Positions 24,121 through 44,274 of a stretch of 64,000 nucleotides of DNA are shown here, one piece after another (the stretch's first letter is position 1; each line of letters begins with the position of its first letter). Origin of the DNA: an uncultured delta proteobacterium (GTDB taxonomy: Bacteria; Desulfobacterota; Syntrophia; Syntrophales; Smithellaceae); assembly GCA_963710575.1 (NCBI GenBank), contig CAVQAL010000010.1:71533-135532 (forward strand). The letters are read 5' to 3'. The notes under the pieces are model-generated. The model was given only the letters and a program-made list of their open reading frames with translations. It was not told the origin of the DNA and made no database searches. Both the position numbers and the translations under genes were made by a program.

Positions 24121-24771
24121 ATGAAATTAAAGAATTGTTTTGTAATTTGCATTCTAGCTTTTATCTGTTTCGCTGCAACGGCTTCGGCGTCCATCATAGA
24201 ATACACTGATATGGCATCCTTTGATGCTGCTGTCTCGGGCACGACCCAGTACAACTTCGATAGCGTCGTCAGCCCCAATACCTATTTAATCGGCAGTACT
24301 ACCGTTGGAGGCGTCACATTTGATACCTTAGCCAACACCACCAACATTCCTTTTCTCTTCGGCTCCAATTACTATCAAAACACATTGGGGGGCGCATCAT
24401 TCTTCTCCGGCCAGACAACTACAGACTTTAATCTATCATACGTGACAGTGGCATCTACTGGCGTGACAGCGATAGGTTTTTACTATAGTCCTGCTGATGA
24501 TGCAGGTGGGGCAATCACTGTGACTATCAACGGCGTCATTTACTCCCTTGCTATACCGGCGTTCAATACTACCGATTTCGTCGGCTTTACTTCGGACACG
24601 CCGATCACGAGCCTTACCTTTTCCGAATCAGGAGATGGTATGGATATAACACAATTTGTCTTGGGCACGGCTAGTCCTACCACGACTTCGGTGCCCGAAC
24701 CCGCCACGATGCTTCTTCTTGGCCTTGGTCTAATGGGATTAGCAGGAGTAAGGAGAAAGTTTAAGAATTAA
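24121..24771 (+). CDS. PEP-CTERM sorting-domain secreted protein
   Basis: The start is moved to the ATG after AAGGAGG (MKLKNCFVICILAFICFAATASA is a signal peptide). The C-terminus VPEPATMLLLGLGLMGLAGVRRKFKN is a PEP motif plus TM helix plus basic tail. Confidence 0.85.
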   Translation: MKLKNCFVICILAFICFAATASASIIEYTDMASFDAAVSGTTQYNFDSVVSPNTYLIGSTTVGGVTFDTLANTTNIPFLFGSNYYQNTLGGASFFSGQTTTDFNLSYVTVASTGVTAIGFYYSPADDAGGAITVTINGVIYSLAIPAFNTTDFVGFTSDTPITSLTFSESGDGMDITQFVLGTASPTTTSVPEPATMLLLGLGLMGLAGVRRKFKN

Positions 24772-26540: not shown

Positions 26541-26845
26541 GTATGGAGTCTCTCCTTCTTACGCATGTTTTTAACCTTCTGTCCGAACAGGTCAGAAACA
26601 TCTTTTTTGTTTCATCTCATCAGGCATAGCTTTTATGTCAATTATTATGACAATAATTGGATACTTCACGTTTAGCGTGTCGTTTTTTAATTTGTGAACA
26701 TTATAGGATTGAAGGGCAATTGTCAATTAATCGCTCAAAGGTGTCCTACCCCTGAAAAAGGTAAGCCTTTTTTCAAAAAAAGTGACATCTTAAAACATTT
26801 TTTCAATCGCATCGTCAGCCCTTGCTTTCTGATGCAAAATATTCT

Positions 26846-26874
26846 TTGACAAACAAAAACCACCTTTCTATACT
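26846..26874 (+). promoter_or_regulatory. Sigma70-type promoter
   Basis: TTGACA-N17-TATACT matches consensus -35 exactly and -10 at 5 of 6 positions. It lies about 75 nt upstream of the 26949 GTG. Confidence 0.6.
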
Positions 26875-26948
26875 CAATTACACAGAAAGCAAGTTCTTAT
26901 CAAATCAAACCTTTCAAAGATCTTGTAATTGGCAATGAAGGATTACCC

Positions 26949-28082
26949 GTGGAATCTCCATTAATAGAAATCTTGTCTCCTTTTTCTGTCTCTGCAATTT
27001 CAATAAACAGTACGGAATTTTCCCGGTGTGTGGAAATTGCCCGCCGGTATGACGTGGAGATGCTTTTCTATTCCAGACTGAAGAAATATTATGCCGGATC
27101 TAATAACTGTATCGATGACTATCTGAAACAAATTGAACATTCATACCTGAAGGCCGTTGCCGTATCAATACGGCAGGAGGTTGTGGAAAAAGAGATTGTT
27201 GCCGCGCTTAGCAAACAGAGCATCTCTGCCTGCATCATCAAGGGAAATGAGATTGCGCGTGTCCTTTATGAAGATCCCAATTGCCGCAGTTCGGCGGACA
27301 TTGATGTGCTCATTCGAACGTCAGATCTGATTGACGCGGATAAGATTCTTTGCGGCAAAGGTTTCACTCGTCAAGATACATTGCCCTTACCGTTTTGGAT
27401 AGGCCGGTTACATCACGCAGTGTATCGTAATGCAAAAAACGGTTGCTTGCTTGAGTTGCACTGGGATTTCGGCTACCCGTTATATTTTAATTTGACTCCC
27501 GATGAAATATGGAAGGAAGTGGCCGGAAGCGACGCGGAAGGATATTCCCTTACACCGGAGGCCATGGTTATCATGCTCTTTACTCATCATTTCAGGCACG
27601 GCTTCAGGGAATTCAAAATACTGGTGGACATCCTCTGGAGCTTCCATAGATATGACGGGATAATCAATTGGCAGGAATTTACAGGAAGGCTCAAGAAGAT
27701 AGGACTTATTAAAACAACCTTAATCATCCTCGATCAATTGGATTCCCTATGGTGCTTGAGTGACAGACGGCTTGAATCCTTTAAGATTCTCCAGAAACAG
27801 CTTGCATCTTTGTCCATCCATACACCGAAATTTTTACTGCGGTATTTCAAAATTGATATAGAAAAAGAATATAAAACAAGCGGTGCACTAGACATGGAAA
27901 TGTCGAAACTTGTTCTCGATAAAAAGTCAAAGATTCTGTATTCTTTCGTTAAAATATTTTTCCCGAGACCTCAGGACATCAGAGGCTTTTATCCTGACAC
28001 CAGCAAACTAACACTTCCGTTAAACTATCTACGTTTTATCTGCTGGCGTGTAAAGCAATCGACTTGTTTTAAAAAGAAGTAA
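26949..28082 (+). CDS. Uncharacterised nucleotidyltransferase-fold protein (PF14907/NTP_transf_5-like)
   Basis: The segment CRSSADIDVLIRTSDLIDADKILCGKGF, a later HHAVYRN...LELHWDF, and the ~380 aa size are typical of the family found next to PqqD/HprK-like genes in peptide-modification clusters. The assignment is from memory of the family, not from an HMM. Confidence 0.6.
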   Translation: MESPLIEILSPFSVSAISINSTEFSRCVEIARRYDVEMLFYSRLKKYYAGSNNCIDDYLKQIEHSYLKAVAVSIRQEVVEKEIVAALSKQSISACIIKGNEIARVLYEDPNCRSSADIDVLIRTSDLIDADKILCGKGFTRQDTLPLPFWIGRLHHAVYRNAKNGCLLELHWDFGYPLYFNLTPDEIWKEVAGSDAEGYSLTPEAMVIMLFTHHFRHGFREFKILVDILWSFHRYDGIINWQEFTGRLKKIGLIKTTLIILDQLDSLWCLSDRRLESFKILQKQLASLSIHTPKFLLRYFKIDIEKEYKTSGALDMEMSKLVLDKKSKILYSFVKIFFPRPQDIRGFYPDTSKLTLPLNYLRFICWRVKQSTCFKKK

Positions 28083-28123
28083 TGGTGGTAAGTTAAAAAC
28101 ATAATGGTCGGTTACTCACTTTT

Positions 28124-29941
28124 TTAACGGTAATGTTGTGCCTGTATTTCGTAAAGGTGGGCGTACTGACCGCCCAGTTGAATCAATTCTTCATGGCTGC
28201 CACTCTCCACGATCCGTCCTTCCTTAAGAACGCAGATTAAATCAGCCATACGGACGGTGGAAAAGCGGTGGCTGATAATCAGGGCGGAACGGCCGTTGAG
28301 CAATGTGCGAAAGGCATGAAAAACCTCATGTTCCATACGGGCGCTCATAGAGCTGGTGGGCTCGTCCAAGATAATCAACTGGGCTTCTCTTAGAAATGCC
28401 CTGGCCAGCGCCACCTTCTGCCATTCGCCGATGCTGAGTTCTACACCTCCGTCAAATTGATTCCCCAAGACCGTTTCATACCCATGCGGCAGATTGCTGA
28501 TAGTTCCGTCAGCCCCTGCCTGTTGCGCAGCAAAGCAGATACGGTCGTCGTCGGGACTAATGCTCACGTCTCCGATCCAGATGTTTTCCCGTACTGTGAG
28601 CGGGTAATGTATATAATCCTGAAAGATCATGGTAATTTCCCGGCGTAGTGCTTGTGTGTCAAAATCACGGAAATCTATGCTGTCCATGGTGATCCGCCCG
28701 CCCGCAGGATCGTAGAGACGGCACAGCAGCTTGGCCAGCGTCGTCTTGCCTGCGCCATTATCGCCTACGAGAGCAACAACCTCTCCGGGACGGATTGTCA
28801 GCTCGATGTCGTGAAGAACCTCGCTACTCGCGGCGGGATACCGGAAAGAAACATGCTCCAGCGCAATGCCCACCTGCATGGGCCGGGGAACATCCGCACA
28901 ATGCGCAGGTAAGGCTGTCTGTGGCTTCAGATCCAAAAAATCATAGAAATGATTCAAAAACATACTGTCTTCATATAGACCGGCTAGTCCTCCCATGATT
29001 TCCTGCAAGTAACCTTGCGCCCGTTGAAAGGCCTGAAAATACATTACCATGTCGCCTAAAGTCATAAACCCTCGTATCGTCCGTGAGGCGATAAAGGCAA
29101 ACATACCGAAAAGCGCCATGATAGCTCCGGCTTGGGCAATCAGATCGAAAGCAGAGCGGCTTTTTACAAGTCGGAGTTGTTCCCTGCGGAGCATTTCTCG
29201 TAGGTCCCGGTACCGCCTCCGGAAGAGGTTGCCCAAATCAAACAGTCGTACTTCTTTGGCGTGGAGCTCGCCCGTTAACATCCAGTGATAGTAGTAAGTC
29301 CGCCGTTCCGTCTCTGTGCGGCTGGATTGCCATTTATAAAGACGATCGGCATGACGGATCTTAACTATTATGCCGGGTAAAACAGCGATGAATAAGACCG
29401 CGGCAACAGCCCAGTGCAGATAAAATAGGAGTCCCGCCAATGCTAGCAGGGAGATGCCGTTTTGGCTAAACTGCGTCAGGGCCTGGACTATATGGTTAGG
29501 CCGGTAGGGGGCCTCTTGCTGAGCCCTGTGGAGTGTGTCGTAGTAGCTTGGATTTTCGTAATAGACTAGATCCACTGCCGCCGATTTACGGTGAATCACA
29601 TCCGTGACGTGATCGGTAACCAACTGGCTCTGGTGTTCCCGGACGACGTCGGCCAGAGCACGGCATCCGGCAGCCAGGAGAGCCACCAGACCTGTCAGAC
29701 CGATCAATAAAAGGACATGATGCAGGGTGGCCGCTTTATTTGGGGCGCTTATTCCCGCAGTAACGGTATCCACAATCAGCTTGATCAGGTAGAGGGGCAG
29801 CAAAGGCAGAAACGCCTGTATCGCTATGAGTCCCAAACCCGCTGTCGTCCATACCCGGGCACTATCCCAGACCAGAACAAGGGCGCGGTGCAATTGCATC
29901 AGTCCACGGATTTTCTGAAAATAACTAACTTTCAAGACCAC
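28124..29941 (-). CDS. ABC exporter, fused permease + ATPase (MsbA/ABCB type)
   Basis: Six TM helices precede the NBD, with Walker A GDNGAGKTT, signature LSIGEWQ and Walker B LIILDEPTS. There is no N-terminal C39 peptidase domain. The GTG start lies 6 nt after the upstream rSAM stop. Confidence 0.88.
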   Translation of the reverse strand: MVLKVSYFQKIRGLMQLHRALVLVWDSARVWTTAGLGLIAIQAFLPLLPLYLIKLIVDTVTAGISAPNKAATLHHVLLLIGLTGLVALLAAGCRALADVVREHQSQLVTDHVTDVIHRKSAAVDLVYYENPSYYDTLHRAQQEAPYRPNHIVQALTQFSQNGISLLALAGLLFYLHWAVAAVLFIAVLPGIIVKIRHADRLYKWQSSRTETERRTYYYHWMLTGELHAKEVRLFDLGNLFRRRYRDLREMLRREQLRLVKSRSAFDLIAQAGAIMALFGMFAFIASRTIRGFMTLGDMVMYFQAFQRAQGYLQEIMGGLAGLYEDSMFLNHFYDFLDLKPQTALPAHCADVPRPMQVGIALEHVSFRYPAASSEVLHDIELTIRPGEVVALVGDNGAGKTTLAKLLCRLYDPAGGRITMDSIDFRDFDTQALRREITMIFQDYIHYPLTVRENIWIGDVSISPDDDRICFAAQQAGADGTISNLPHGYETVLGNQFDGGVELSIGEWQKVALARAFLREAQLIILDEPTSSMSARMEHEVFHAFRTLLNGRSALIISHRFSTVRMADLICVLKEGRIVESGSHEELIQLGGQYAHLYEIQAQHYR

Positions 29942-29947
29942 ACCCGT

Positions 29948-31081
29948 TTATCTCTCTAAATTAATCGGGAGCAATTCCGTCCCCTTCTTAATATTTTCCG
30001 CCCTTCTGTGAGCCACTTTGCAGAAATAAGGCGTTGAACCATCCAACATGCCCGTTTCCAAATGTGCATGGGCGGGACACCACAGGCATAGATTCACCAG
30101 CGCGCATTTTCGGCATGATTCAAGAAATTCCTTGCGTTTAGAGCGTAAATCCCGGACGCGGGGAACTAAGTTTTTCCATGCGTCCGCCAGTGTTCCCTTG
30201 CGCAAATCATAAGTTGTTCCGTCCGCCCACAAAGAAGAACACAGGCGGAAACGGCCATCGTGACTTATAGTGAAGCTGCCGTTTCCCGCGCCGCAATGGA
30301 AAAGGTGGTCGCAGCCGTAATGGGTAAATTCCTCGTTAATCAGCGTATCGCATTCCTTCCGCATGGCGTTGATGCGCTGGTCATCGCTGTTTTCCAGCGA
30401 CACGATTTGTTCCGGCGTCAAACGCTGGACACGGATTTCCTCATTGCGTTTTTGATTGCCGTCGAAGCGCAGGTGCAGTTGCGGGTCGAAACGGTAATAG
30501 TCCTTCGTCCTGGAGCGGCAAAAATCGGCAATGGCCTGCTGTTCATGTAGATTTGCCTGAATCACCATCGCTTTTAAGCGGACCCGGACATCGTTTTTCA
30601 CCAGAGCATTAAGCCCGTTAATGAACCTTTCGAATGATTCGGGGCGGCGTGTCACTGCTCCATAAGTTTCTTTCGTCACGCCGTAAACAGTGATTTCGAT
30701 GTCCCGCGGCGGGTATTTCTTGAAAAGCGCGATATGCTCTTCGTTAACCAGTGTGGCGTTGGTAAAAACCGCGACAAGCAACCCCAGACGCTTCAATCCC
30801 ATGTATATCTCGGAAAAATCTTCCCGCAAAAGCGGCTCACCTCCGGTGATGAGACACCACATAGCGCCCATTCCCGCTGCCTCGCTGGCGATGGTCATAA
30901 TTTCCGCTACCGTAAGCTCACGGCTTTGTGCCTCTTGGTCTGCTGCCGGCAAGTTTATATAGCAGTGGGCGCAGTTCATGTTGCAACGTGCCGTGATCTC
31001 GATGTCAAAAGAGATGGGCGCCTGTTTGGCCATGAGTTTATCCCAGAGAGGGAATTGCTGTATTTCGATGGTATCGGTCAT
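29948..31081 (-). CDS. Radical SAM / SPASM-domain peptide-modifying enzyme (paralog 1)
   Basis: The CxxxCxxC cluster is ARCNMNCAHCY and the SAM-binding motif is GGEPLL. The SPASM-type Cys-rich tail reads CGAGNGSFTISHDGRFRLC...CRKCALVNLCLWCPA. Confidence 0.88.
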   Translation of the reverse strand: MTDTIEIQQFPLWDKLMAKQAPISFDIEITARCNMNCAHCYINLPAADQEAQSRELTVAEIMTIASEAAGMGAMWCLITGGEPLLREDFSEIYMGLKRLGLLVAVFTNATLVNEEHIALFKKYPPRDIEITVYGVTKETYGAVTRRPESFERFINGLNALVKNDVRVRLKAMVIQANLHEQQAIADFCRSRTKDYYRFDPQLHLRFDGNQKRNEEIRVQRLTPEQIVSLENSDDQRINAMRKECDTLINEEFTHYGCDHLFHCGAGNGSFTISHDGRFRLCSSLWADGTTYDLRKGTLADAWKNLVPRVRDLRSKRKEFLESCRKCALVNLCLWCPAHAHLETGMLDGSTPYFCKVAHRRAENIKKGTELLPINLER

Positions 31082-31235
31082 ATGCCTGCCTCAATTTTTT
31101 TATTACAATTCGTCGCCGTATGGTTTTTACCTTTTCTTCATAAAGCTTTGGTTTAAGAATGGACAGAGTAATACGGAACGCAAGGGTTAAACAGGTCATG
31201 AACTACTTTCATATCACCTTCATCCGCCACAGAAA

Positions 31236-31829
31236 TCATTGCCTGAAGCGCAGTTTGCCAAGCCAGCGGTAAACTGAAAATGATTGAAAGCTACGCAAGC
31301 CATAACTTGCCGCGCGCCGCGGCATAATCAAGAGCTTTTTCAAACACAAAAGCGCTTTGCCGCGATTAAGAATCGCGATGAGTTCCCCGGCTTTCCCGAT
31401 TCCCCGATGCGCTTCCATTCCCTGGCGTTCAACGCGGCAAACACGGCCTATAATATTTTCGGTTGCAACTACTCCGTCCGAATCCGGGCAATTATCTCCC
31501 CTGATAAGCCAACCGTCGTCTGTTCGTCCAATAATGCGATGGATGGCAAGTTTTCCGGTACTGGGTTTTTTAAAGGCGACAACATCTCCCAGCGACGGTT
31601 GCATTTCTTTTATAGGCGAAATCGTCAAGACATCTTTATCGCGAATGAAAGGCTGCATGCTGAATCCCCGCGCCGTCGTGCGTAAAGCCACGCCGCTTTC
31701 CATCATAGCAAGAAGCAACTCAAGTTGTCCCAGGTCGGATAGGCTTAACTCTCCGCCTTGAAAAACGTATTGTGAATCCGATATGCCTGATGATGAAATA
31801 TTGTTAGAGTAATTCATCTCGCTCGACAT
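31236..31829 (-). CDS. S26B (SipW/Sec11-like) or S24-type serine peptidase, candidate leader peptidase
   Basis: The nucleophile motif is GFSMQP. It is followed by AIHRIIG...IRGDNCPDSD, which resembles the Ser/His-type signal peptidase motifs (HR...GDN). No TM anchor is obvious. Confidence 0.6.
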   Translation of the reverse strand: MSSEMNYSNNISSSGISDSQYVFQGGELSLSDLGQLELLLAMMESGVALRTTARGFSMQPFIRDKDVLTISPIKEMQPSLGDVVAFKKPSTGKLAIHRIIGRTDDGWLIRGDNCPDSDGVVATENIIGRVCRVERQGMEAHRGIGKAGELIAILNRGKALLCLKKLLIMPRRAASYGLRSFQSFSVYRWLGKLRFRQ

Positions 31830-31889
31830 TTAACCTTTTTCCATTGTTTGGAAAATCAACATTTGACTCATTCGTCAATTCTTATAAGA

Positions 31890-32198
31890 TCAATCATTTT
31901 TAACTGCCAGAATTCCCCGTTTGACCATCTCGGCGGCAAACCCCAGCACATCGGCTTTTATTTCCTCGGCAGTTGAGGAAAATTCGTCCATCAATTCCAC
32001 CGAAATCTTCTTCAACGATCGATGCCCGTTGAGTTTTTTCCAGATTGCTTTGCCGGTTTCGTTGAGCGTATAGAGTTCATCGTCCGCATCGCCGATCCCG
32101 GCAACCAGCGGCACAATGATCATGTCTCCTTCAATTTCCCGCGCCACCACATCATCCGACGGCACGCAGATGGTATCCACTGTCACTTTTGTTTCCAT
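31890..32198 (-). CDS. PqqD-family RRE (peptide chaperone) protein
   Basis: The start is moved to METKV (AGAGG lies 9 nt upstream). The segment AREIEGDMIIVPL...ELYTLNETGKAIWKKLNGHRSLKKISVELMDEFS...IKADVLGFAAEMVKRGIL is the classic PqqD winged-helix pattern. Confidence 0.75.
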   Translation of the reverse strand: METKVTVDTICVPSDDVVAREIEGDMIIVPLVAGIGDADDELYTLNETGKAIWKKLNGHRSLKKISVELMDEFSSTAEEIKADVLGFAAEMVKRGILAVKND

Positions 32199-32339
32199 AA
32201 AAATCAACCTCTTTAAGTAATATTTCCCCCATGCAATTCGGGTGTGCTTTTGCTTTTTCAATCTGCTATAGTAAAGTACCTAAAATGACAAAAAAGTAAA
32301 AAGTCATGATCATTCCTTACTTGTTCTAGATACTTGGAA

Positions 32340-32368
32340 AATATATCATAAACTATTTCAATATGCAA
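32340..32368 (-). promoter_or_regulatory. Possible internal sigma70-type promoter upstream of pqqD-like gene
   Basis: The minus strand reads TTGCAT-N17-TATATT, inside the 360-nt gap between the methyltransferase and PqqD genes. Confidence 0.4.
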
Positions 32369-32558
32369 ATTGGACATTCATCTTCCTGTCACTTGCCGGT
32401 AGACAGGAACGAATCCAAGGGGATAAATAAGCCGTAGCAGTGCGCGACCTCCCTGCCTTGATGGATGCAGTGCGGTTTAAGGCCATCGGATGCAATGATA
32501 GAACGGCGCGTTTTGTGTTAGGATAAGTCCAGCCGCAAACGCATTACTGTGGCAAGGA

Positions 32559-33347
32559 TTATGTCTGCCGTTTCTGAAGAAGCGCCTCACCGCGCCCAGG
32601 AATATTGTTGGGAATATGCAGCCAAACCACATCAAATCCGCCTGCGGCGAATTCTGCCCGCAGATCACTTTCCGACGAAAAAGTGTGGATAAACTCAACA
32701 TTGCCCCACAACATATCGCCGCGCTCATACGAACGGTTGCCCATTGTGAGCCAGGTGATTATTTGGCATAAGAATGCACCTTTGGAAGAAAATTGCTGGC
32801 GTGTGTCCCATTGGAATTGGCAGGCTAAATAGCCGCCCGGTTTTAGTGCGCGGCACGCGTGCCGGAGCATTTGCACGCGGCGGGCACGAGAGGGTAAACA
32901 TGAATACATCCCGGCAAAGATCCAGACGACATCATATGCTTCGGTGGGCACGTCAAGGGCGGCAATATCCTGCACGAGCCCTTTGATTTGCACGTTGTAG
33001 CGGGCGGCATTGGCTATAGCGCCTTCAACCATCTCCGGAATAAAATCTACGCCGGTTACATCAAATCCCATTCGGGCAAAGGAAATGGCTTCCCTTCCTC
33101 CTCCCACACCAAGCAACAATAGTTGCCCTGTTCTGGGTGGAAGGCGTTCCAACAGTTGCAACTCTTCGGGATGGAGTCCTTCCGCGACAACATCATCTCT
33201 GTTCCAACCTTCTATGCTCCTTAGCTTTGCATAATGCTGACGGCTGAACTCTACCAACTCGTCGGAAGTCATAACCATCACAGCTGATTTCTGGATGAAA
33301 GCACCCAGGCGAATCAATCCGCGCGCCAGCGCGATATGCAATTTCAT
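32559..33347 (-). CDS. Class I SAM-dependent methyltransferase
   Basis: Motif I is LLLLGVGGGREAI, with the acidic post-I FDVTGVDF. GAGAGGA precedes the ATG. Confidence 0.75.
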   Translation of the reverse strand: MKLHIALARGLIRLGAFIQKSAVMVMTSDELVEFSRQHYAKLRSIEGWNRDDVVAEGLHPEELQLLERLPPRTGQLLLLGVGGGREAISFARMGFDVTGVDFIPEMVEGAIANAARYNVQIKGLVQDIAALDVPTEAYDVVWIFAGMYSCLPSRARRVQMLRHACRALKPGGYLACQFQWDTRQQFSSKGAFLCQIITWLTMGNRSYERGDMLWGNVEFIHTFSSESDLRAEFAAGGFDVVWLHIPNNIPGRGEALLQKRQT

Positions 33348-33502
33348 CGAATATTCCTCTCACTATATGCAGCCACCATCTTGCGCTTCACCAGCTCGCC
33401 CACCAGATTGTTCACATCATGCGTAATGCCAGTTGCTGACGCGCTGTACCCAGCAGCGAGGCCGGCGATATGGCGCAAGAAATGTGTTCCAGTCAACGGC
33501 AT
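33344..33502 (-). CDS. Unannotated 52-codon ORF coupled to the methyltransferase gene
   Basis: The translation is MPLTGTHFLRHIAGLAAGYSASATGITHDVNNLVGELVKRKMVAAYSERNIR. Its TGA overlaps the methyltransferase ATG (ATGA), and its GC-rich, coding-like composition contrasts with the AT-rich 33520-33833. The SD is weak and I recognise no family. Confidence 0.3.
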   Translation of the reverse strand: MPLTGTHFLRHIAGLAAGYSASATGITHDVNNLVGELVKRKMVAAYSERNIR

Positions 33503-33833
33503 TTCTTGCGAGTTATAATATAAAGAAAATCAAAGACCATTTAAAGTGCAAGGAGTACAATCATGCGAAGGATAATAAAACGGGCAACGCTCAACGTGTT
33601 TAGGTTAAATGCTGAAGACCGAAAACTAATCTCTTTTCCTTCAGCTTAAAGTCTAACTCCCTCCGGCCTCATTGTTTTGGGTGCAACCCCGTCCGGATAC
33701 ACGTACATCGACTCATAAAGATAAAAACCAAACGTTAAACCTTTCTGATTTATCGGTTGGTTTTTATTCGCGAGTTGGGATGCCAGCGTGGAGCGGAAGG
33801 ATCCCGTAGTGGTTATAATATTGGATAACCTTA

Positions 33834-34010
33834 TTATGAGGTTACATTTGTATTGCAAAAGGTACCACACCCGGCGGTTGTACCACAATTGTTGTGGTGC
33901 GTGCCGGTTGCTCCGGCTGCTGTTCCTTTGCAAGTTGTCAAAACTTGTTCTTGGCTGTTTGTTTTAACAAGTACTGTAATTTTGGGCTTTGTCCACATAA
34001 GTTTTTTCAT
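33834..34010 (-). CDS. RiPP precursor peptide (58 aa), unannotated in ORF track
   Basis: AAGGAGGG lies 8 nt upstream of the ATG. The translation is MKKLMWTKPKITVLVKTNSQEQVLTTCKGTAAGATGTHHNNCGTTAGCGTFCNTNVTS. It sits in the middle of the rSAM/PqqD operon and has its own promoter-like element. Confidence 0.7.
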   Translation of the reverse strand: MKKLMWTKPKITVLVKTNSQEQVLTTCKGTAAGATGTHHNNCGTTAGCGTFCNTNVTS

Positions 34011-34033
34011 ATATTTTGCCCTCCTTTTTGTAA

Positions 34034-34062
34034 AGGATATGTAATAGTTGATTGTATGTCAA
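34034..34062 (-). promoter_or_regulatory. Sigma70-type promoter directly upstream of the precursor gene
   Basis: The minus strand reads TTGACA-N17-TATCCT and ends about 24 nt before the ATG. Confidence 0.5.
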
Positions 34063-34175
34063 GGAAAAATATTGTAGGAATTTACTTATTCGAAGCATAA
34101 TCATCTATAAAGCGATAAAGATAAAGCATGCGAGGGTGAACAAGAAAAATTGTTTCAAGTTCTGACCTGACTTCG

Positions 34176-35387
34176 TTACCCTTTCACTCTTTCTTCCCAA
34201 TAAAGAACCTCCCACGCTTTTTCTCTATTCTTCAGCCAGCCCAAAGATCTGCCTTGGGCGTGGGCAACTTCACATAGATATTCAACCGGCGTATCCAGAG
34301 TCCCGTGCTCCGCCCAGGATTTTGCCGGACACTGTTCGCACAGCCCCTTAAGAAAACAGACAGCGCAACGGCGCAGGTAGTCGGGATTGGTAGCTTTGAT
34401 GGTCTTAAGATTTTTGAAAAAATCAAGGGCTTCAGATAACATATTATGCTTCTGATATACCGGTTCATTTTCGGGATTGCTTTGGTGGCTTTCGCCCCCT
34501 CGCAATAACAAATTCCGCAGAAGATTGAAGGACAACTCCGGCGCGCGCACGCCCATGCAGAGATGAGCAAATCCATAGGCATCAATACACATGCCGTTAC
34601 CAGCTCCGCATCGGAAAAGTGCGTCGCCCGGCGGTCCCATGAATTTTCCCGCAAATTCTTTCATAGCCTTACGATATTTTGCCGCATCCCTCATCAATAT
34701 AGCCACGCCTTCTTGGGGTGAAAGACGAAGTGACGCTATCAAAGTATTCTTTTTCTCATTGTCTCGTCGATTGCGCAGATCTAAGAACAGGGAATAGCTC
34801 GGGCGTTCGTCCATCCAGGGGATTGTGTTTGCCCATGCTTCAAATTCATTCATCTCGGCTTTGTTGGGTGGCAAAATGGCGCTTTTGACGACAAAAGGAA
34901 TCTTGCGATCGAATAGCAAATCCACGCCCCGCTTGAATTGGGCAAACGAACCTGGCATGCGCGAGACCGCCTCATACGATTCCTTTCGCATGCCGTAAAC
35001 GGTGATTTCCATGAACACGAGCGGCGGAATGTGTACTAAAAGATCCGCCAATTGCGGCGTAATCAGGCGGGCGTTAGTGAAGATGAGGACTTTCAGACCC
35101 AATCGGCGGGCGAAAAGATATAGATCCTCGAAGTCAGGCCGCAAAAGCGGTTCGCCGCCGGTGAAGCGCACTTGCAGGCAACCCAGATCCGCGGCCTCAG
35201 TAAGAATGCTTTTTACCTGTCCGGTCGTCATCTCGCGTGCTTTGGCCGCGCGGTCATTGGCCGGCAGATTAATACAACAATGGATGCAGTCGTTATCACA
35301 CCGCTCGGTAAGTTCAATATCCAGAGATCCTAAGCGTGAGGCAATCTTTTTTTCCGAGTTTTTCACAAGTTGAACAAATTCAGACAT
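34176..35387 (-). CDS. Radical SAM / SPASM-domain peptide-modifying enzyme (paralog 2)
   Basis: The start is moved to MSEFVQL (35387), because the longer track ORF would overlap the upstream gene by 115 nt. The cluster is ERCDNDCIHCC, with GGEPLL. The SPASM tail reads CGAGNGMCIDAYGFAHLC...CAVCFLKGLCEQCPA. Confidence 0.88.
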   Translation of the reverse strand: MSEFVQLVKNSEKKIASRLGSLDIELTERCDNDCIHCCINLPANDRAAKAREMTTGQVKSILTEAADLGCLQVRFTGGEPLLRPDFEDLYLFARRLGLKVLIFTNARLITPQLADLLVHIPPLVFMEITVYGMRKESYEAVSRMPGSFAQFKRGVDLLFDRKIPFVVKSAILPPNKAEMNEFEAWANTIPWMDERPSYSLFLDLRNRRDNEKKNTLIASLRLSPQEGVAILMRDAAKYRKAMKEFAGKFMGPPGDALFRCGAGNGMCIDAYGFAHLCMGVRAPELSFNLLRNLLLRGGESHQSNPENEPVYQKHNMLSEALDFFKNLKTIKATNPDYLRRCAVCFLKGLCEQCPAKSWAEHGTLDTPVEYLCEVAHAQGRSLGWLKNREKAWEVLYWEERVKG

Positions 35388-35410
35388 GGCTTGATATAAC
35401 CTTAGTATCT

Positions 35411-37474
35411 CTATTCTATCTTTAACAACTCTTCGACAATCGCGCCTGATTTGTCGAAGCGCATGGTATAGCAGGGGATCTCTTGGACTATGCGCTCCAG
35501 AAGGTCCAACTCCTTTTGCCACCATTCGGCAGTAACCATGGGGCGGATAAGCGTGGCCAAAAGATTATGCCAAATCTTTTTGCGGTCGGTCAAAGCCTCA
35601 ATTTTATTTAACCTATCCTGCTTTAAAAACAAGATAGCGCAAAGAGGCGCCGAAGACGGCGATACATCGGCGGTAGTGCCGTGGCTCCATGTGCCGTGGA
35701 CAAGCCATTGACCATTACCATTTCTTTTTCCCCCTTTCACTCGGGCGGAAGTTGGCTTTTGCCCTGTCGTCTTGTCGGGCCAGTAGCGCAAGATATTGCG
35801 GTCGTCGCACAGAATTTCCAGCGAAATTCTATCTTTGCGATTTTCCGCTTTGAGCAATTCCATCGTCGTGGATTTGCCGGCTTCGGAATGGCCGACAAAG
35901 ACCAGTCCCTTGCCGTTGACAATAGCCGCCGCCGAATGCACAAGGATTGCGTCGCGGTCGGCAAGCAGAGGCCCCAGCCAGATCTGATCCGTCGGGAAGT
36001 GAGAAAGCGATTGCCAGCCGTCGGTGAGAATGCGGTCGATTTCGCCAGGCTCGCTGTAAATTGTGCCACGGACATGGTCGGCGCTGAAAACGGCCAGACG
36101 GTGATGGAAGTCATCTCCTTTTGTGTGCGGGATGATACGATAGAACCAGGCACCGTTATTGTTGCGGGAAATTGCCCAAGGCGGATTGTGGAAGAGTTCT
36201 TTGCCCAAACTCTTTCCCTCCAAATCCGGCAACTCGAAGTAGTGGCGAAACTCTACATTGTCTTTGCCGGGGCCTTCCACAGAAAATACCATCAGTTCAT
36301 CCTTGAATTTGATCTTGCTGAAATCCAGATCGCTTTCGATCCGGGCGGTAATGCCCGCAATCCGGAAATAGCGGCGATGATTCTTCTGCCAATCCTCCTT
36401 GCATTTGCGCTCTTCTTTTGCAATGGCGCATAAATCCGGGACGGGAGCGGAATAACGCTCCGTTTCCAGATACGCATAGCCAGGGCACCAACAGCAATCA
36501 TTTCGGCTTTCACAGGAGGCGCAATTTGTTCGCCATTCATTGTCACCTCGTATCTTGTCGGCACAGGAGGGAATGAAAGTATTCCAAGCCTCTGCAAAGG
36601 TTCCTCGTCGCAAATCATAGCGTAGGGCATTGTCCTTAATCAACTCGCACCACGACATCCGGCCGTAGGGGTCAATATGAAATATTCGCCGCTCGGCTAT
36701 ACACCGGGCAAACAGGCGGTCGTCACCTTCGTTAACAGCACCGCAAGCCGCTTCGATATGATTTTCCCCCTCCATTTCGCAGGCGCGTTTTCCCAATTCG
36801 GCTATCCGCTCATAATAGGTCAAATCGGGTTTATCTAGATTGATAACATCCGAGGGAGATAATCTCTGTTTCTGAATCTCTTTGTTCCTCTGCATTGAAC
36901 TATCGCAGGAAAGGCAAAGCCAAGATGCGCCGCAACGCCAATGTTTGCTCAGTGATTTCGCAAGGGCGATCATTTCCTCCCATTGATGATAATTGGCTCG
37001 CATGGGAACCAACTGGACAATGAAGCCGGCTCTCTCTTTCTTCAGGTAATCAAAGCCGTTCATCACCTTTTCGAATCCTCCGGGATTGCGGGTGACGTGA
37101 TCATAGACCTCGGCGGTCGCACCATAGAGAGCGATCATCTTTGTTCCTTTGCGGGTCAGTAAGCGGGCAATTTCCGGCGTTATAAGCGTCCCGTTGGTGT
37201 TGATGCTGTAGGAGACAGCCTTGCGGGTGAGGTAATCGAATATCTCAGGAAAATCAGGCCGCAGCAGCGGCTCGCCGCCGGAAATGTTCCAGTGGCGGCA
37301 ACCCATGGCGCGGGCGTCGTCAACGATACGCCGGATTTCGTCAAATGTTAGTTCGTTTTTCTTCTCCGGCGCGTTGATGGGCAGGGAAATCCAACAGTGA
37401 CGGCAGTTGTTGTTGCACCGGTAGGTCAAGTCAATGTGGCCTTCCAGGGGGAGACGAGGAATTTCGTTGATCAT
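35411..37474 (-). CDS. Radical SAM/SPASM enzyme fused to a C-terminal HprK-like P-loop kinase domain
   Basis: Residues 1-~360 carry YRCNNNCRHCW, GGEPLL and CASCESRNDCCWCPG (SPASM). Residues ~370-687 carry LVHSAAAIVNGKGLVFVGHSEAGKSTT, typical of HPr kinase-related proteins. It is one uninterrupted 687-codon frame. Confidence 0.8.
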   Translation of the reverse strand: MINEIPRLPLEGHIDLTYRCNNNCRHCWISLPINAPEKKNELTFDEIRRIVDDARAMGCRHWNISGGEPLLRPDFPEIFDYLTRKAVSYSINTNGTLITPEIARLLTRKGTKMIALYGATAEVYDHVTRNPGGFEKVMNGFDYLKKERAGFIVQLVPMRANYHQWEEMIALAKSLSKHWRCGASWLCLSCDSSMQRNKEIQKQRLSPSDVINLDKPDLTYYERIAELGKRACEMEGENHIEAACGAVNEGDDRLFARCIAERRIFHIDPYGRMSWCELIKDNALRYDLRRGTFAEAWNTFIPSCADKIRGDNEWRTNCASCESRNDCCWCPGYAYLETERYSAPVPDLCAIAKEERKCKEDWQKNHRRYFRIAGITARIESDLDFSKIKFKDELMVFSVEGPGKDNVEFRHYFELPDLEGKSLGKELFHNPPWAISRNNNGAWFYRIIPHTKGDDFHHRLAVFSADHVRGTIYSEPGEIDRILTDGWQSLSHFPTDQIWLGPLLADRDAILVHSAAAIVNGKGLVFVGHSEAGKSTTMELLKAENRKDRISLEILCDDRNILRYWPDKTTGQKPTSARVKGGKRNGNGQWLVHGTWSHGTTADVSPSSAPLCAILFLKQDRLNKIEALTDRKKIWHNLLATLIRPMVTAEWWQKELDLLERIVQEIPCYTMRFDKSGAIVEELLKIE

Positions 37475-37518
37475 GGTAATATGGTCCTATAAAATCATAA
37501 TAAATTTTCACTTTGAAA

Positions 37519-37547
37519 TATATAACGTGCCGGCCTCGTTGAGTCAA
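37519..37547 (-). promoter_or_regulatory. Sigma70-type promoter for the minus-strand rSAM operon
   Basis: The minus strand reads TTGACT-N17-TATATA, about 45 nt upstream of the 37474 ATG. Confidence 0.55.
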
Positions 37548-37689
37548 CGTAGCCATTATATAATAGGCAAATTGTTTATATCAAAAGCACCAAAAATGCA
37601 ACTGATGTCGTCATCTTCGCTCAATAACATTTATTTATAAGGCAATAAAAGCCCCGTATCTTCAGCGTGATCATTAGTGCCACACACTC

Positions 37690-37740
37690 ACATTTTGTGG
37701 TCAAGATTTCCTTGACACACAAGACTTGGTTTCTTATACT
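37690..37740 (+). promoter_or_regulatory. Sigma70-type promoter with shared upstream module
   Basis: ACATTTTGTGGTCAAGATTTCC-TTGACA-N17-TATACT. The near-palindrome TGTGGTCAAG-N5-CTTGACACA spans the -35. It lies about 170 nt upstream of the HemN-like gene. Confidence 0.6.
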
Positions 37741-37910
37741 TCTTCTACAAAAAGGAAATTTTTATCACAAGACCGCGTAAGAAGATTATCTGCGCCACAC
37801 AGAAGAGGAACCCATAATCTTTAACAATAGTTGAGTAACTACGACCGGGACGAAATCCTGATGCAGCTGGAATATGACCGCGCGAATAGCGGGCAGGGCA
37901 AGAAAAGAAA

Positions 37911-39173
37911 ATGACTAAACCTTTAAACGATGAGGTGAAAAATTTACGCGATATATCTTTATTATATGTAAATATACCTTTTTGCAAATCCAGATGCCAT
38001 TTTTGTTGTTTCTGCAGGACTTTTGGCCGTGATTTATTATCGTTAAAGAAGCTGAAAAGCTCATACATAAAAGCTGTCAAGTATGAACTTGCAGTAAAAA
38101 GTTTTTATTATACTGCAAAACACAGCGTCAATTTAAAGGCGATCAATTTCGGAGGCGGTACCCCTACCCTGCTTGCAGCTGACGAGTTGGGTGATCTCCT
38201 TTCCTCGATCGTAGAGCTTTTCGGTCAGAAAATCGAAGATATAAAAGATATTAGCATAGAAGCGACGCCCGATTCTTTAACGCTTTCTAAATTAAAACAG
38301 TTGAGGTGTGCAGGATTTAACAGGATAAGTATCGGGGCCCAGACATTCGAAAAGCGGATCTTAAATAAATTAAATCGTTCCCATTCCATCGAAGATTTTT
38401 ATAACGCTTACGACCGGGCGCGTTTGGCGGGGTTTAAGAATATCAATATTGATCTATTGTATGGTATTCCGACCCAAACCTTTGAAGATTTAAAAAACGA
38501 CCTTGAAACAATTGTCAAAATTGATCCGGAGCACATATCTCCATCTCCATTGATGGCGGTAAAGAGCGTTTTATTTGAGCCGGCAGATAAGAAGAAAAGT
38601 AAGGCTGTAATGAAAGAAAATAGATGGGCAGGCTATGTCCACGAGTTTTTAGAAGATAAGGGGTACCGGAATTATTTTCATAAGTATTTTTCGAAGATCG
38701 GACGGGAATCTATAACGGAATTGGTCTACTTTTATGATATTCCGTATATTGGCATAGGTCCTGGAGCTACAAGTTGGTTCGGGGATAACCCTTCTGACAT
38801 CAAATCTTATATCGATAAACCTGTTTCGGGTGAGATATTCACAAAGAATACGCCATACAATCCATTGAGAGTAATATTTTCGATGCTTCTTTTCCCGGAG
38901 GGTATTTATATACCGTATTTTAACGAACGATACGCGTGTGATTTAGAGGAGCTAGTGGGAAATCCACGACTAGGGCTAGATTTTTTTACGAAATTTGGAG
39001 ATTGTTCGCAGGAGACCATAAAAGAAGTTAGAACGCGGCAAAAGGAACTTGTAATGACGATAAAGAAATGGAAAGCGAAAGGCGCAATCGAAAAGAAAGG
39101 CGATTATCTTCGTATTACTCCGTCGGCACGATTCTCCAAAGAAATGTGGGGATTGTATATGACATCGATATAA
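37911..39173 (+). CDS. HemN/HemW-like radical SAM protein (class C rSAM methyltransferase-like)
   Basis: The cluster is YVNIPFCKSRCHFCCF, with GGGTPTLL and a HemN-like C-terminal domain. It is divergent from the rSAM operon. Confidence 0.8.
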   Translation: MTKPLNDEVKNLRDISLLYVNIPFCKSRCHFCCFCRTFGRDLLSLKKLKSSYIKAVKYELAVKSFYYTAKHSVNLKAINFGGGTPTLLAADELGDLLSSIVELFGQKIEDIKDISIEATPDSLTLSKLKQLRCAGFNRISIGAQTFEKRILNKLNRSHSIEDFYNAYDRARLAGFKNINIDLLYGIPTQTFEDLKNDLETIVKIDPEHISPSPLMAVKSVLFEPADKKKSKAVMKENRWAGYVHEFLEDKGYRNYFHKYFSKIGRESITELVYFYDIPYIGIGPGATSWFGDNPSDIKSYIDKPVSGEIFTKNTPYNPLRVIFSMLLFPEGIYIPYFNERYACDLEELVGNPRLGLDFFTKFGDCSQETIKEVRTRQKELVMTIKKWKAKGAIEKKGDYLRITPSARFSKEMWGLYMTSI

Positions 39174-39819
39174 ACGTCATCCGTGCGTACCGGAAACAAA
39201 TAAGTGAGCACCTATTTATCCCACACCTTTTTTGGCGATCCGGAATGAACGTGTGATGGATATATATATCCTAAATAACCTGAAGATCACGCGGGGAAAC
39301 AAGCATTCATAACGCATCATAAAAAAGATGAACATATTTTTAAAAATAACAAATGTCACCATAGAGCACGCAGGAGAAATTTTTTAAAACTCAAATGGCT
39401 ACTCCACATGTAAAGAGGGAGTGCTATTTGGATAGTTAATATTCAGGAGAAACAGCATGTGAAAAAGGAAGTTGTATAAATCTGATATTAAAATAAATAT
39501 TTTTCAACAGAAAACCGCCAAATCTTTATTCAAATAGCTTTTAATTTCAATCACCCATATAAGACAGAGTTATATCAAATGATATATTACAACAAATAAC
39601 TAATACTTATTTGACAAAACCATTAATAATTAATAAGAAATACAGATAATTTTATTCAAACAGCTTTAGGTTTTACTGACCTTTATGTAAGTCAGAGGGC
39701 GGAGCAGTATCAACTGCCTGCGATTTCGATAAGCGGAATATATAAAAGACATAGTTCACAAATTTGATTTTGTTGGAAAATATTGATATGCCGTTAACTG
39801 CAATTTTAATCGGAGGGTT

Positions 39820-41001
39820 ATGAAACATAAAACAATACTATTGAAATCCAAATCCTGCAGCTATCTGATGGTTTTGTTGCTGTTCATAACTGCTTTCCTG
39901 CTGGTTGGCTGTGAGAACCATTATGTGAAATGGAATCAAGAAACAAAAAGGTTCGAGTCGGTTGATTCCACGCGGGATGAGACCGGCACTGCAAAAGAAA
40001 TCAGTGACAAAAGAACAATCTCACCTTTGCAGAAACCAAGTGCAACTCAGGCGAAAAGTCCCATTGTTGAGATGAAAACAGTAACAATTCCCGCGCTGAA
40101 AGAGCCGCCACCGCCTGCTGATTACATTGTTGGCCCTAATGACTCTATCGTGGTCACCGTCATTAACGCCCCCGAATATTCTTCAGGTAGCAGCGGCGGC
40201 AGCAGTAATAATACACAGCGTGGCAGCCGAGTGGACGGCAACGGTAACATCCAAATGCCAACGCTGGGACTGGTAAAAGTTAACGGCATGACATTGTCCC
40301 AGATACGCGACCACATACAAGACCTTCTGAAGCAATATATTAAAAAGCCATCCGTGGTGGTTGAGATTACAGAATATAAAAGTTATCCTCTATATATTTT
40401 AGGACAATTTAAAAACACCGGCATTTTCTATATGGATCGTCCCTTTAATGTTCTTCAGGGACTTGCCCTGGGAGGCGGATACGATTCGTTTGCCAATCCG
40501 AAATCAGCGAGGATTATCCGGGACAAAAGAGTATTGCCTGTGGACGTTTACGAATTGCTGATGAATGCTGACCAGACACAGAACATCTGGCTGAAACCCG
40601 GCGATACAATCTTCATGCCGGACAATAAAAATCAAACGGTTTTTGTTTTCGGAGTGGGAAAACCCGGCGTGTCCATTACGCTGCCACCGTCCGGTCTTAA
40701 CCTTCTGCAGGCTATAGCCACCGCCGGTTTGGAGAAAGTCGGCTATCACGCCAGACGTGTTTATCTCATCCGTTCTCTCTCCCCCACTCGCGGGCAATTA
40801 ATAGTGGTTGATGTTGAAGCAATCATACAGAGCGGCGCTCGTCCCCTGCAACTTTGCGAAGGCGACGTCATTTACATACCCAAGAGCGGATTGACAAGCT
40901 GGAACGAAGCCATCACCGAAATGCTGCCCACACTTCAGGCTTTCGGCGCGATACTCACGCCCTTTGTTCAGCTTAAATACCTTTTCGACAAAAATAATTA
41001 A
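39820..41001 (+). CDS. Polysaccharide export outer-membrane lipoprotein (Wza/Poly_export + SLBB)
   Basis: The lipobox is LLVGC. The Poly_export motif region is YIVGPNDSIVVTV...VDGNGNIQMPTLGLVKVNGMT, and SLBB-like repeats follow. GGAGGG precedes the ATG. Confidence 0.8.
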   Translation: MKHKTILLKSKSCSYLMVLLLFITAFLLVGCENHYVKWNQETKRFESVDSTRDETGTAKEISDKRTISPLQKPSATQAKSPIVEMKTVTIPALKEPPPPADYIVGPNDSIVVTVINAPEYSSGSSGGSSNNTQRGSRVDGNGNIQMPTLGLVKVNGMTLSQIRDHIQDLLKQYIKKPSVVVEITEYKSYPLYILGQFKNTGIFYMDRPFNVLQGLALGGGYDSFANPKSARIIRDKRVLPVDVYELLMNADQTQNIWLKPGDTIFMPDNKNQTVFVFGVGKPGVSITLPPSGLNLLQAIATAGLEKVGYHARRVYLIRSLSPTRGQLIVVDVEAIIQSGARPLQLCEGDVIYIPKSGLTSWNEAITEMLPTLQAFGAILTPFVQLKYLFDKNN

Positions 41002-41035
41002 CAAAACTAATAACGAGCAACAACTAGAGGAATTT

Positions 41036-43432: not shown

Positions 43433-43569
43433 AATAATTAAGATTGAAGGTGGATGCCGCGCCATCATTTATAAGGAAACATCTGAATCGAAAAAGTGGA
43501 TAGAACGAGTTGGTAGCTATCGGGACGGATACTGGAAATTAAATAATTGAACTTAAATCTTATTTTTTT

Positions 43570-44274
43570 ATGATCGATTTTCACTGTCACATTCTACCCG
43601 GTCTTGACGACGGCCCCGCCCACATAGACGAATCCGTGGCAATGGCGGCGGCCCTGCGGGATGCCGGTTTCAGAACAATCTACTGCACGCCCCATCTCAT
43701 CAAAGGATGCTTCGAGGCGGACAACCAGAACGTGCTGTCATCCGTGTCAACCTTGCAGACAAGGCTGAACGCGGAAAATATCGAACTTGAAATCCTACCG
43801 GGCCGTGAATATTACCTGGATGAATTTCTTGGCAATTATCTGAAAGATCCTCTGCCCCTTGGTAAAACACGTTATATAATGGTAGAAATTCCCAACAACA
43901 CACCCGCCAAATACGTTAAAGAAACCTTTTTTCGGATAAAATGCGGCGGGTTTATCCCGATGATTGCCCATCCTGAGCGATGCAGACTTTTTTCCGTGAT
44001 TCAAAAACAAACAACATCAAGGTTTTGGTTTTCCGGATCAAAACGTAAAACTTCAGATTCAAAAATAAAAGAACCTGCACTGATAGATTACCTGAAAGAC
44101 ATTGATTGCGCTTTTCAGGGCAACCTTGGCAGTTTTGATGGCTTGTACAGCTCGGAAGTACAGCAAACGGCGGACTATCTTAAGAAAAATAAAGTATACA
44201 CACATTTCGGCACCGACGCCCATTCCCTTCATGCCATCACCCTTTTGAATCTGTCCTCCGTTGGCGCGAAGTAG
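43570..44274 (+). CDS. PHP-family protein-tyrosine phosphatase (CpsB/YwqE-like)
   Basis: The N-terminus MIDFHCHILPGLDDGP, a later CTPH and IAHPERC are the metal-binding His motifs of CpsB. Confidence 0.8.
   Translation: MIDFHCHILPGLDDGPAHIDESVAMAAALRDAGFRTIYCTPHLIKGCFEADNQNVLSSVSTLQTRLNAENIELEILPGREYYLDEFLGNYLKDPLPLGKTRYIMVEIPNNTPAKYVKETFFRIKCGGFIPMIAHPERCRLFSVIQKQTTSRFWFSGSKRKTSDSKIKEPALIDYLKDIDCAFQGNLGSFDGLYSSEVQQTADYLKKNKVYTHFGTDAHSLHAITLLNLSSVGAK

Follow-up and report, generated by a model that had tools for sequence, protein, structure and literature searches.

Ribosomally made peptides with post-translational modifications (RiPPs) that are matured by radical S-adenosylmethionine (rSAM) enzymes with SPASM domains include the sactipeptides and ranthipeptides (AlbA, SkfB, CteB/SCIFF, PapB, and StsB), and a discrete PqqD protein together with an rSAM/SPASM enzyme acts on a small peptide in the pathway to pyrroloquinoline quinone (PQQ; PqqA/PqqD/PqqE). 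In paeninodin-type lasso peptides, a homologue of HPr kinase phosphorylates the C-terminal Ser on its side chain, largely irrespective of the remaining peptide, and in pseudomycoidin the uncharacterized nucleotidyltransferase-fold protein PsmN is required for the addition of hexoses to the phosphate (PMC8498205, PMC6993621). These lasso systems comprise the kinases PadeK/PsmK, PsmN, a B1 protein that is a PqqD-like RiPP recognition element (RRE), and an ATP-binding cassette (ABC) exporter. The SynChlorMet (SCM) cassette was reportedly defined by Haft and Basu in 2011. It is a bioinformatically defined, uncharacterized system of ScmC (TIGR04249), the PqqD-like ScmD (TIGR04248), and the rSAM/SPASM proteins ScmE (TIGR04250) and ScmF (TIGR04251). 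Here these systems are compared with a locus in a 64,000-nucleotide stretch of DNA (the window; contig CAVQAL010000010.1) from an uncultured delta proteobacterium of the Smithellaceae, in which a minus-strand open reading frame (ORF) of 58 codons at 33834–34010 is read as encoding the A-peptide, the precursor from which a conserved and horizontally mobile cassette makes a RiPP with the mechanism proposed below, a reading to which we give a probability of roughly 0.7.

The family to which the ORF belongs is best described as an uncharacterized and widely transferred group of RRE-dependent rSAM RiPPs. The combination that distinguishes it is a kinase-fold domain that is often fused to an rSAM enzyme, an invariant C-terminal Ser or Thr at a fixed distance from the last Cys, an S26-type peptidase, and two or three dedicated rSAM/SPASM enzymes. 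In the literature library searched, no paper on this cassette was found, an earlier bioinformatic mention being possible.

Organization of the Cassette

The precursor gene and the cassette genes of the window are as follows.

33834–34010, minus strand: precursor peptide gene, 58 codons, 58 aa, translation MKKLMWTKPKITVLVKTNSQEQVLTTCKGTAAGATGTHHNNCGTTAGCGTFCNTNVTS
36386–37474, minus strand: rSAM/SPASM domain 1 (rSAM1), the N-terminal half of a 687-aa fusion, motifs CNNNCRHC and CASCESRNDCCWC
35411–36385, minus strand: ScmC-like domain, the C-terminal half of the 687-aa fusion, ~320 aa, with a P-loop and a predicted phosphoenolpyruvate (PEP) carboxykinase/HPr-kinase fold
34176–35387, minus strand: rSAM/SPASM enzyme 2 (rSAM2), 403 aa, directly upstream of the precursor
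32559–33347, minus strand: class I SAM-dependent methyltransferase, 262 aa, an accessory found in some cassettes only
31890–32198, minus strand: PqqD-family protein, 102 aa (Pfam PF05402, E 1e-13), 1.6 kb downstream of the precursor
31236–31829, minus strand: soluble S26/S24-type (SipW/archaeal-type) serine peptidase with GxSMxPF, HR, and GDN boxes that are invariant across phyla
29948–31081, minus strand: rSAM/SPASM enzyme 3 (rSAM3), 377 aa, SPASM PF13186 detected
28124–29941, minus strand: ABC exporter, a fused permease/ATPase of the MsbA/HlyB type without a C39 peptidase domain
26949–28082, plus strand: NTP_transf_5 nucleotidyltransferase-fold protein (PF14907, E 5e-34), convergent with the cassette, a recurrent accessory

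All three rSAMs carry the CX3CX2C motif, a SPASM CX2CX5CX3C motif, and 8–12 Cys residues toward the C terminus, and the ScmC-like domain contains the motifs GHSEAGKST and CDDR. The best NCBIfam match of the peptidase is the archaeal/SipW-type signal peptidase I (E 9e-10); by direct reading it has no N-terminal membrane anchor, and a soluble leader peptidase is proposed as the simplest role for this S24/S26-like protein. The PqqD homologue had already been placed 1.6 kb downstream of the ORF in the initial annotation, which was made from the sequence of the window, and the Pfam match bears this out, whereas the kinase-like domain on the upstream rSAM fusion and the S26-type peptidase had been missed. 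The block from 28 to 38 kb has a G+C content of 0.48–0.51, compared with 0.37–0.45 in the flanking 2-kb bins, which, together with the wide taxonomic spread described below, is consistent with horizontal acquisition.

Comparison with Described Systems

With SCM, the nearest of the curated systems, the cassette shares an ScmC-type domain, a PqqD-family protein, and two paralogous rSAM/SPASM enzymes, as well as a spread over syntrophs, Chlorobi, and methanogens. The scores, in contrast, are distant: the rSAMs of the window reach at most 93 bits where the SCM cut-off is 400 (rSAM3 against ScmE, 93.3; rSAM1 against ScmF, 91.6), the PqqD-like protein scores 32.5 bits against ScmD (cut-off 100), and the ScmC-like domain 14.9 bits against TIGR04249 (cut-off 125). 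Orthologous rSAMs from Chlorobiaceae, Aminicenantes, and Eubacteriales fall in the same range (60–96 bits against 400). Beyond the SCM set there are an S26-type peptidase, a precursor family that can be defined, and, in many of the cassettes, a third rSAM to which the ScmC-like domain is fused. Because the components of the window, and of orthologues from three other phyla, score far under the SCM cut-offs, membership was rejected and the locus was not filed as SCM.

The phosphorylated lasso systems are similar in having a precursor that ends in Ser, a leader motif of the form aromatic-x-x-P-x-L, a PqqD-like RRE, a protein of the HPr-kinase fold, and often a nucleotidyltransferase-fold protein and an ABC exporter; as modeled here, a domain of the HPr-kinase fold likewise stands beside a precursor ending in Ser. 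The only similarity found with a profile hidden Markov model (HMM) was between the peptide family and NF033524 (lasso_PadeA_fam), to which 6 of 30 members aligned with a best E-value of 0.048, which is not significant, and the window peptide itself gave no match to this model. In contrast to the lasso systems, scans of the cluster proteins with Pfam and NCBIfam found neither a lasso cyclase (Asn-synthetase-like) nor a B2 transglutaminase-like protease, and macrocyclization would be expected from rSAM/SPASM enzymes acting on Cys. The kinase-like domain also differs in that it has an additional N-terminal β domain, is at least as similar to PEP carboxykinase as to HprK, and is often fused to an rSAM.

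Likeness to the sactipeptides and ranthipeptides lies in the Cys-containing core, in the CX3CX2C motif and SPASM domain with a full set of auxiliary-cluster Cys residues, found in all three rSAMs, and in the predicted leader-dependent processing and ABC export. None of the rSAMs reached a curated NCBIfam cut-off, the top scores being ~100 bits against cut-offs of 265–850. For the individual maturases the scores were at most 54 bits for AlbA (cut-off 850), at most 72 for StsB (625), 48 for PapB (340), and 48 for SkfB (300). The locus differs further in that the RRE is a separate protein rather than an N-terminal domain, in that two or three different maturases are present instead of one iterative enzyme, and in its kinase-like domain and invariant C-terminal Ser/Thr. 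The system probably works like the sactipeptides and ranthipeptides even though it falls in no curated maturase family.

In the initial annotation the leader had been called PqqA-like. What can be retained of this is the motif W-x-K-P at its start, which we take to resemble the N terminus of PqqA, as an analogy between RRE-binding motifs; homology was rejected, with no match to a PqqA model at E ≤ 1 for the window peptide and 29 relatives. The resemblance does raise the alternative that the peptide gives rise to an intracellular redox cofactor, made in the manner of PQQ or mycofactocin, and not to a secreted bioactive peptide. The discrete PqqD and the PqqE-like rSAM/SPASM enzymes would agree with it, as would the occurrence of the cassette in methanogens and strict anaerobes, in which a new cofactor would be plausible. 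However, the bit scores are 36.6 for PqqD (cut-off 46) and 60–74 for PqqE (cut-off 381), neither pqqB, pqqC, and pqqF nor PqqA or mycofactocin-pathway genes were found, and there was no match to an MftA model. The core has no Glu/Tyr pair (by direct reading, that of the window precursor contains neither residue) and is hypervariable in sequence and length, where cofactor precursors have invariant cores; some loci carry two to six divergent precursors in tandem (e.g. L131 and L041), and an ABC exporter is a frequent neighbor. A cofactor precursor is very unlikely in view of these differences, and a secreted RiPP remains the preferred reading.

The Precursor Gene and Its Expression Signals

The features of the precursor and of its transcription are the following.

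Residues ~1–26 of the precursor: leader (MKKLMWTKPKITVLVKTNSQEQVLTT), followed by a conserved C27-K28 junction and a variable core that runs to the C-terminal S58
34034–34062, minus strand: σ70-like promoter, TTGACA-N17-TATCCT, 10 of 12 positions matching, the top promoter-like site in a 4-kb scan
33721–33767, minus strand: terminator-like long hairpin followed by a U-rich tract, beginning 67 nt past the precursor stop codon

The exact translation was reproduced, and a Shine-Dalgarno sequence (AAGGAGGG, 34019–34026) lies 8 nt ahead of the ATG, so that these claims of the initial annotation, like its promoter, stand. Direct reading of the precursor also gave the same residue pattern, with eight Thr and three Cys in the final 30 residues, arranged as C42-x5-C48-x3-C52, and a fourth Cys at position 27. 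The description as unannotated does not stand, since the identical 58-aa protein is already present in NCBI, JGI, and ENA as a 'hypothetical protein'. A 54-aa version that starts at Met5, as called by some gene finders, is also in public records.

An independent 2-kb metagenome contig (L001) carries a 78%-identical homologue of the precursor in the same order of rSAM, peptide, and methyltransferase. The homologue does not have the second Met, which supports Met1 as the start. The two copies differ at 12 codons synonymously and at 13 non-synonymously, with 8, 8, and 20 differences at the three codon positions, and the -35 box, the Shine-Dalgarno sequence, and the hairpin are kept in L001. The 126-nt region that holds the hairpin (33715–33840) folds with -30.3 kcal/mol (z = -4.25 against shuffled sequences). 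With its own promoter and a terminator-like hairpin, the precursor gene looks like a small transcription unit of its own, which is the usual layout where a RiPP precursor is to be made in excess over its enzymes. The hairpin would probably give the precursor a short, abundant transcript with partial read-through.

A direct k-mer-seeded protein search with the peptide matched only the same species and one 78% variant, and NCBIfam and Pfam scans of the window peptide alone gave no match, nor did an Rfam scan of 26000–40000 find an RNA family. The absence of a curated family match, the short length, and the low complexity (Thr/Gly/Ala-rich) are what would be seen if the ORF were a chance open frame or a non-coding spacer within an rSAM operon whose enzymes act on a different substrate. 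The strong Shine-Dalgarno sequence and promoter, the synonymous bias in the divergence from the homologue, and the way in which the invariant positions track the cassette across phyla and in a reciprocal search (below) all speak against such a frame, and the conservation data effectively refute it. By these comparisons the 58 codons form a genuine gene.

Between the precursor and the methyltransferase lies an unusually long spacer of 486 nt (33348–33833, minus strand), which is 75–80% conserved with L001, has no Rfam match, and in which the terminator-like hairpin is the only part with a suggested function. Public annotations place a gene of 52 codons at its downstream end (orf52, 33344–33502, minus strand), overlapping the start of the methyltransferase by 4 nt. 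In L001 this frame is disrupted by indels and a ~117-nt insertion and only the last ~70 nt are conserved, and for this reason orf52 was not counted as part of the system. These last ~70 nt ahead of the methyltransferase ATG (33344–33420) are ~90% identical in L001 and may be a conserved 5′ leader or a translational-coupling element rather than a protein.

Distribution of the Cassette

Relatives of rSAM2 number in the thousands, the best 120 of them being 65–100% identical. A scan of one genome per species gave 37 loci (L008–L044) with a relative that matches most of rSAM2, at 45–77% identity, from Chloroflexota, Smithellaceae/Syntrophaceae, Omnitrophota, Aminicenantes, Cytophagia, Bacteroidales, Chlorobiaceae, Eubacteriales, Desulfobulbaceae, Actinomycetes, and Methanomicrobiales. 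Searches with the window proteins (tblastn) identified a recurring core of the ScmC-like domain, rSAM2, PqqD, the S24/S26-like peptidase, and rSAM3, with the ABC exporter, NTP_transf_5, and the methyltransferase as variable additions. About one-third of the loci have a free-standing ScmC-like protein of ~300 aa and two rSAMs only; in the other two-thirds or so the ScmC-like domain is fused to a third rSAM, as in the window. One locus from a Chlorobiaceae metagenome-assembled genome (L022, 2500–13900) contains two complete two-rSAM cassettes in tandem, with one precursor each.

A Precursor Family with a Conserved Leader, Conserved Cysteines, and a Terminal Serine

The direct search returned only the same species and one variant; the family became visible only through the neighborhoods of rSAM2 orthologues. 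With the window peptide as the seed, jackhmmer run on every small ORF in the rSAM2-orthologue loci converged on ~40 peptides, and an HMM built from 30 of these matched in 27 of the 37 orthologous loci and in none of 43 unrelated rSAM loci from the same scan. The initial annotation had proposed a leader-plus-core precursor that should recur beside orthologous rSAM/PqqD genes, and this recurrence agrees with it, as do the metagenome loci found with the leader alone (see below).

In the alignment P9, E21, L24, C27, C42, and C52 are invariant and W6, L11, V23, and K28 nearly so, with the leader consensus (K)WxKPELxVLxRxxPEExVLxxCK. After the CK junction, composition and length vary, except for the two Cys, which in the window precursor are C42 and C52 with C48 as an additional Cys. 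Ser is the C-terminal residue in 31 of 31 well-formed genome-derived members, compared with 11% of the large ORFs of the same loci, and in 21 of the 31 the final conserved Cys precedes the C terminus by 6 residues. The terminal Ser to which the initial annotation had drawn attention is thus the most conserved feature of the core. Its description of core composition stands in part: the Cys pattern and the terminal Ser are family-wide, whereas the richness in Thr/Gly/Asn is confined to the window member.

An additional Cys ahead of the last conserved one, in the motif C-x2-3-C, occurs in 19 of the 22 peptides that belong to three-rSAM cassettes, compared with 2 of the 8 that belong to two-rSAM cassettes (Fisher p = 0.003, uncorrected for shared ancestry). 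This additional Cys, C48 in the window precursor, thus tracks the third rSAM, which suggests that the third enzyme serves it and, more generally, that each rSAM handles a particular site.

A conserved leader followed by a variable core, in a precursor that is co-located with rSAM and PqqD-like RRE genes across taxa, is the arrangement of RRE-dependent radical SAM RiPPs (RaS-RiPPs), and on these comparative grounds the peptide and its cassette are assigned to them.

Some loci contain tandem arrays of three to six precursor genes (L131, 2345–4325, minus strand; L168; L098; and L041, 6033–7335) with near-identical leaders and diversified cores, the six copies in L131 being ~380 nt apart. A precursor at 2528–2761 of L022 ends in Pro and does not have the usual Cys spacing, the sole such peptide among the well-formed genome-derived ones.

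Reciprocal Metagenome Search

Metagenome contigs were searched with a hand-built degenerate DNA pattern for the leader only, which matched at least 120 metagenome stretches. The matches listed comprise 80 loci with 87 unique complete peptides. Among these 87, the C-terminal residue is Ser in 73, Thr in 8, and another residue in 6 (mostly frameshifted or truncated), the final Cys precedes the C terminus by 6 residues in 68, and 58 of the peptides contain four Cys and 21 contain three. Of the 80 loci listed, 68 carry one or more of the core cassette genes, and the 31 listed loci of at least 6 kb contain PqqD in 26, rSAM3 in 23, rSAM2 in 21, the peptidase in 19, and the ScmC-like domain in 18. 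Peptide and cassette therefore predict each other, and, since the terminal hydroxy-amino acid lies outside the pattern used for selection, it is a true feature of the family. The occasional C-terminal Thr fits a hydroxyl-directed kinase.

The ScmC-like Domain as a Putative Kinase

Weak matches only were obtained for the ScmC-like domain in NCBIfam (HprK_rel_B, E 0.0024; ScmC, TIGR04249, E 0.012, 14.9 bits), and a profile search matched HPr kinase structures with E 0.008 over the segment from the P-loop to the DD motif. Precomputed annotations place PF27840 ('ScmC') on the best 120 homologues and give it as 'faint' for the window protein, for which a direct Pfam scan did not report this family. 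As searches of Pfam and the PDB by sequence alone yielded P-loop noise or weak HprK matches, they were set aside and a comparison of folds was needed. The AlphaFold2 model (30 homologues) was confident, with a mean predicted local distance difference test score of 88 and a predicted TM-score of 0.86, and in a Foldseek search against the PDB all 46 matches with E ≤ 1e-3 were PEP carboxykinase or HPr kinase/phosphorylase. These two enzymes share one P-loop phosphotransferase fold. The family motifs LHS..G.G..F.GHS.AGKST and CDDR are invariant. The assignment as a kinase is thus made at the level of fold and motif and is not proof of activity. By analogy with the lasso kinases, the domain fused to rSAM1 may phosphorylate Ser58.

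A different role for the terminal residue has to be weighed here, in which precursor and cassette are the same but the C-terminal Ser is the substrate of an rSAM enzyme, either for an MftC-like oxidative decarboxylation or for a cross-link from the Cys six residues upstream to the terminal residue that gives a C-terminal macrocycle, and the ScmC-like domain serves as a scaffold or chaperone that depends on ATP, or has some other target. The fixed C-x5-S-COOH spacing (21 of 31 genome-derived members, and 68 of the 87 peptides listed) resembles a ring constraint and would be superfluous for phosphorylation; in addition, the best NCBIfam match of rSAM1 is the mycofactocin maturase MftC (105 bits), which acts on a C-terminal residue, and the identity of the kinase is weakly supported at the sequence level. 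However, the MftC score is far under its cut-off of 265 and near those of several unrelated rSAM families, and the exchange of Ser for Thr at the C terminus (8 of the 87 listed) suggests that a hydroxyl group is needed, as it would be for a kinase. The P-loop and the DD motif do not vary within the ScmC-like family, and the significant fold matches are all to phosphotransferases. An rSAM reaction at the terminal Ser is considered unlikely on this balance, and it would be compatible with a kinase, the two not being mutually exclusive.

Proposed Pathway

In the reading preferred here, the discrete PqqD-family protein would serve as the RRE, binding the WxKPxL part of the leader and handing the peptide on to the rSAM/SPASM maturases. 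The two core enzymes of this type and the third would then install radical cross-links at the invariant Cys residues, most likely thioethers of the sacti or ranthi type, with the third rSAM serving the additional Cys of C-x2-3-C (C48). Thioether chemistry is the likeliest for invariant Cys residues beside SPASM enzymes, although sequence cannot establish it. The ScmC-like domain of the HPr-kinase/PEP carboxykinase fold would phosphorylate the side chain of the invariant C-terminal Ser, and the NTP_transf_5 protein could decorate that phosphate, as PsmN does in pseudomycoidin. The methyltransferase would contribute an accessory methylation, the soluble S26-type Ser/His peptidase would cut off the leader, and the ABC transporter would export the product.

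Several points weigh against this pathway or parts of it. The chemistry is drawn from sequence comparison and a predicted fold; the rSAM reaction type is not readable from the sequences, the enzymes being only remotely related to characterized ones, and the closest PDB structures (PqqE, SkfB, and BlsE, E 1e-6 to 1e-9) match over the rSAM core only. For the putative kinase, the TM-scores are modest (~0.4 normalized on the query for PEP carboxykinase and ~0.5 on the target for HprK) and the sequence E-values weak, and the phospho-acceptor is suggested only by the lasso precedent and by a terminal Ser/Thr that is invariant. Many cassettes do not have NTP_transf_5, the methyltransferase, or the ABC exporter, in part because contigs are short. 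A recognizable peptide is missing from 10 of the 37 orthologous loci, most of them short contigs, although two of the 10, L023 (13 kb) and L034 (12 kb), are not short; manual inspection of L023, L034, L019, L011, and L017 found no convincing divergent precursor.

L034 is a Eubacteriales locus. In L023 (Syntrophaceae UBA6255) a low-complexity run lies in the 1.2-kb gap that separates rSAM2 from PqqD, where an assembly problem is possible.

A further-reaching proposal is that the family forms a distinct bacterial and archaeal RiPP class, in which the kinase domain phosphorylates the C-terminal Ser/Thr and the activated residue either closes a ring with the Cys six residues upstream, by elimination-addition or displacement, or anchors a phosphoglycosyl cap, while separate rSAM/SPASM enzymes each cross-link one other conserved Cys. 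This is put forward as speculative and is probably not correct as it stands; if true, it would combine phosphoryl transfer and radical chemistry on one peptide, for which there is no described precedent.

Genomic Surroundings

The cassette is surrounded by a capsule/exopolysaccharide locus (24939–26540, minus strand, and 39820–44274, plus strand) encoding a Wzi-like outer-membrane protein, a Wza-like Poly_export protein, a Wzc-like GNVR/ParA tyrosine kinase, and a CpsB-like phosphatase, as labeled by Pfam on the identical contig L004. A HemN/HemW-like radical SAM protein (37911–39173, plus strand; TIGR00539, 185 bits against a cut-off of 205) is divergent from the cassette and probably lies outside the system, because it adjoins the cassette in the same species only. 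Farther away, a protein of 259 aa (23992–24771, plus strand) has at its C terminus, by direct reading, a PEP-CTERM-type sorting signal (VPEPATMLLLGLGLMGLAGVRRKFKN), which implies an exosortase system in the organism.

Implications for the Family

New enzyme chemistry and narrow-spectrum antibiotics have one of their main sources in peptides modified by radical SAM enzymes. From one small ORF, the analysis leads to a family with a searchable leader motif, three invariant Cys residues, an invariant terminal Ser/Thr at a set distance from the last Cys, and a core cassette of five genes. Members of this family number in the hundreds to thousands, occur in uncultured anaerobes that range from Chloroflexota to methanogenic archaea, and carry no curated annotation. 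The apparent pattern of one enzyme per additional Cys offers a simple handle with which to assign enzymes to sites, and the cassette is a compact target for heterologous expression that could reveal up to three new rSAM reactions. If the proposed phosphorylation is true, the ScmC-like domain would be the first peptide kinase beyond the lasso peptide, lanthipeptide, and cyanobactin pathways.

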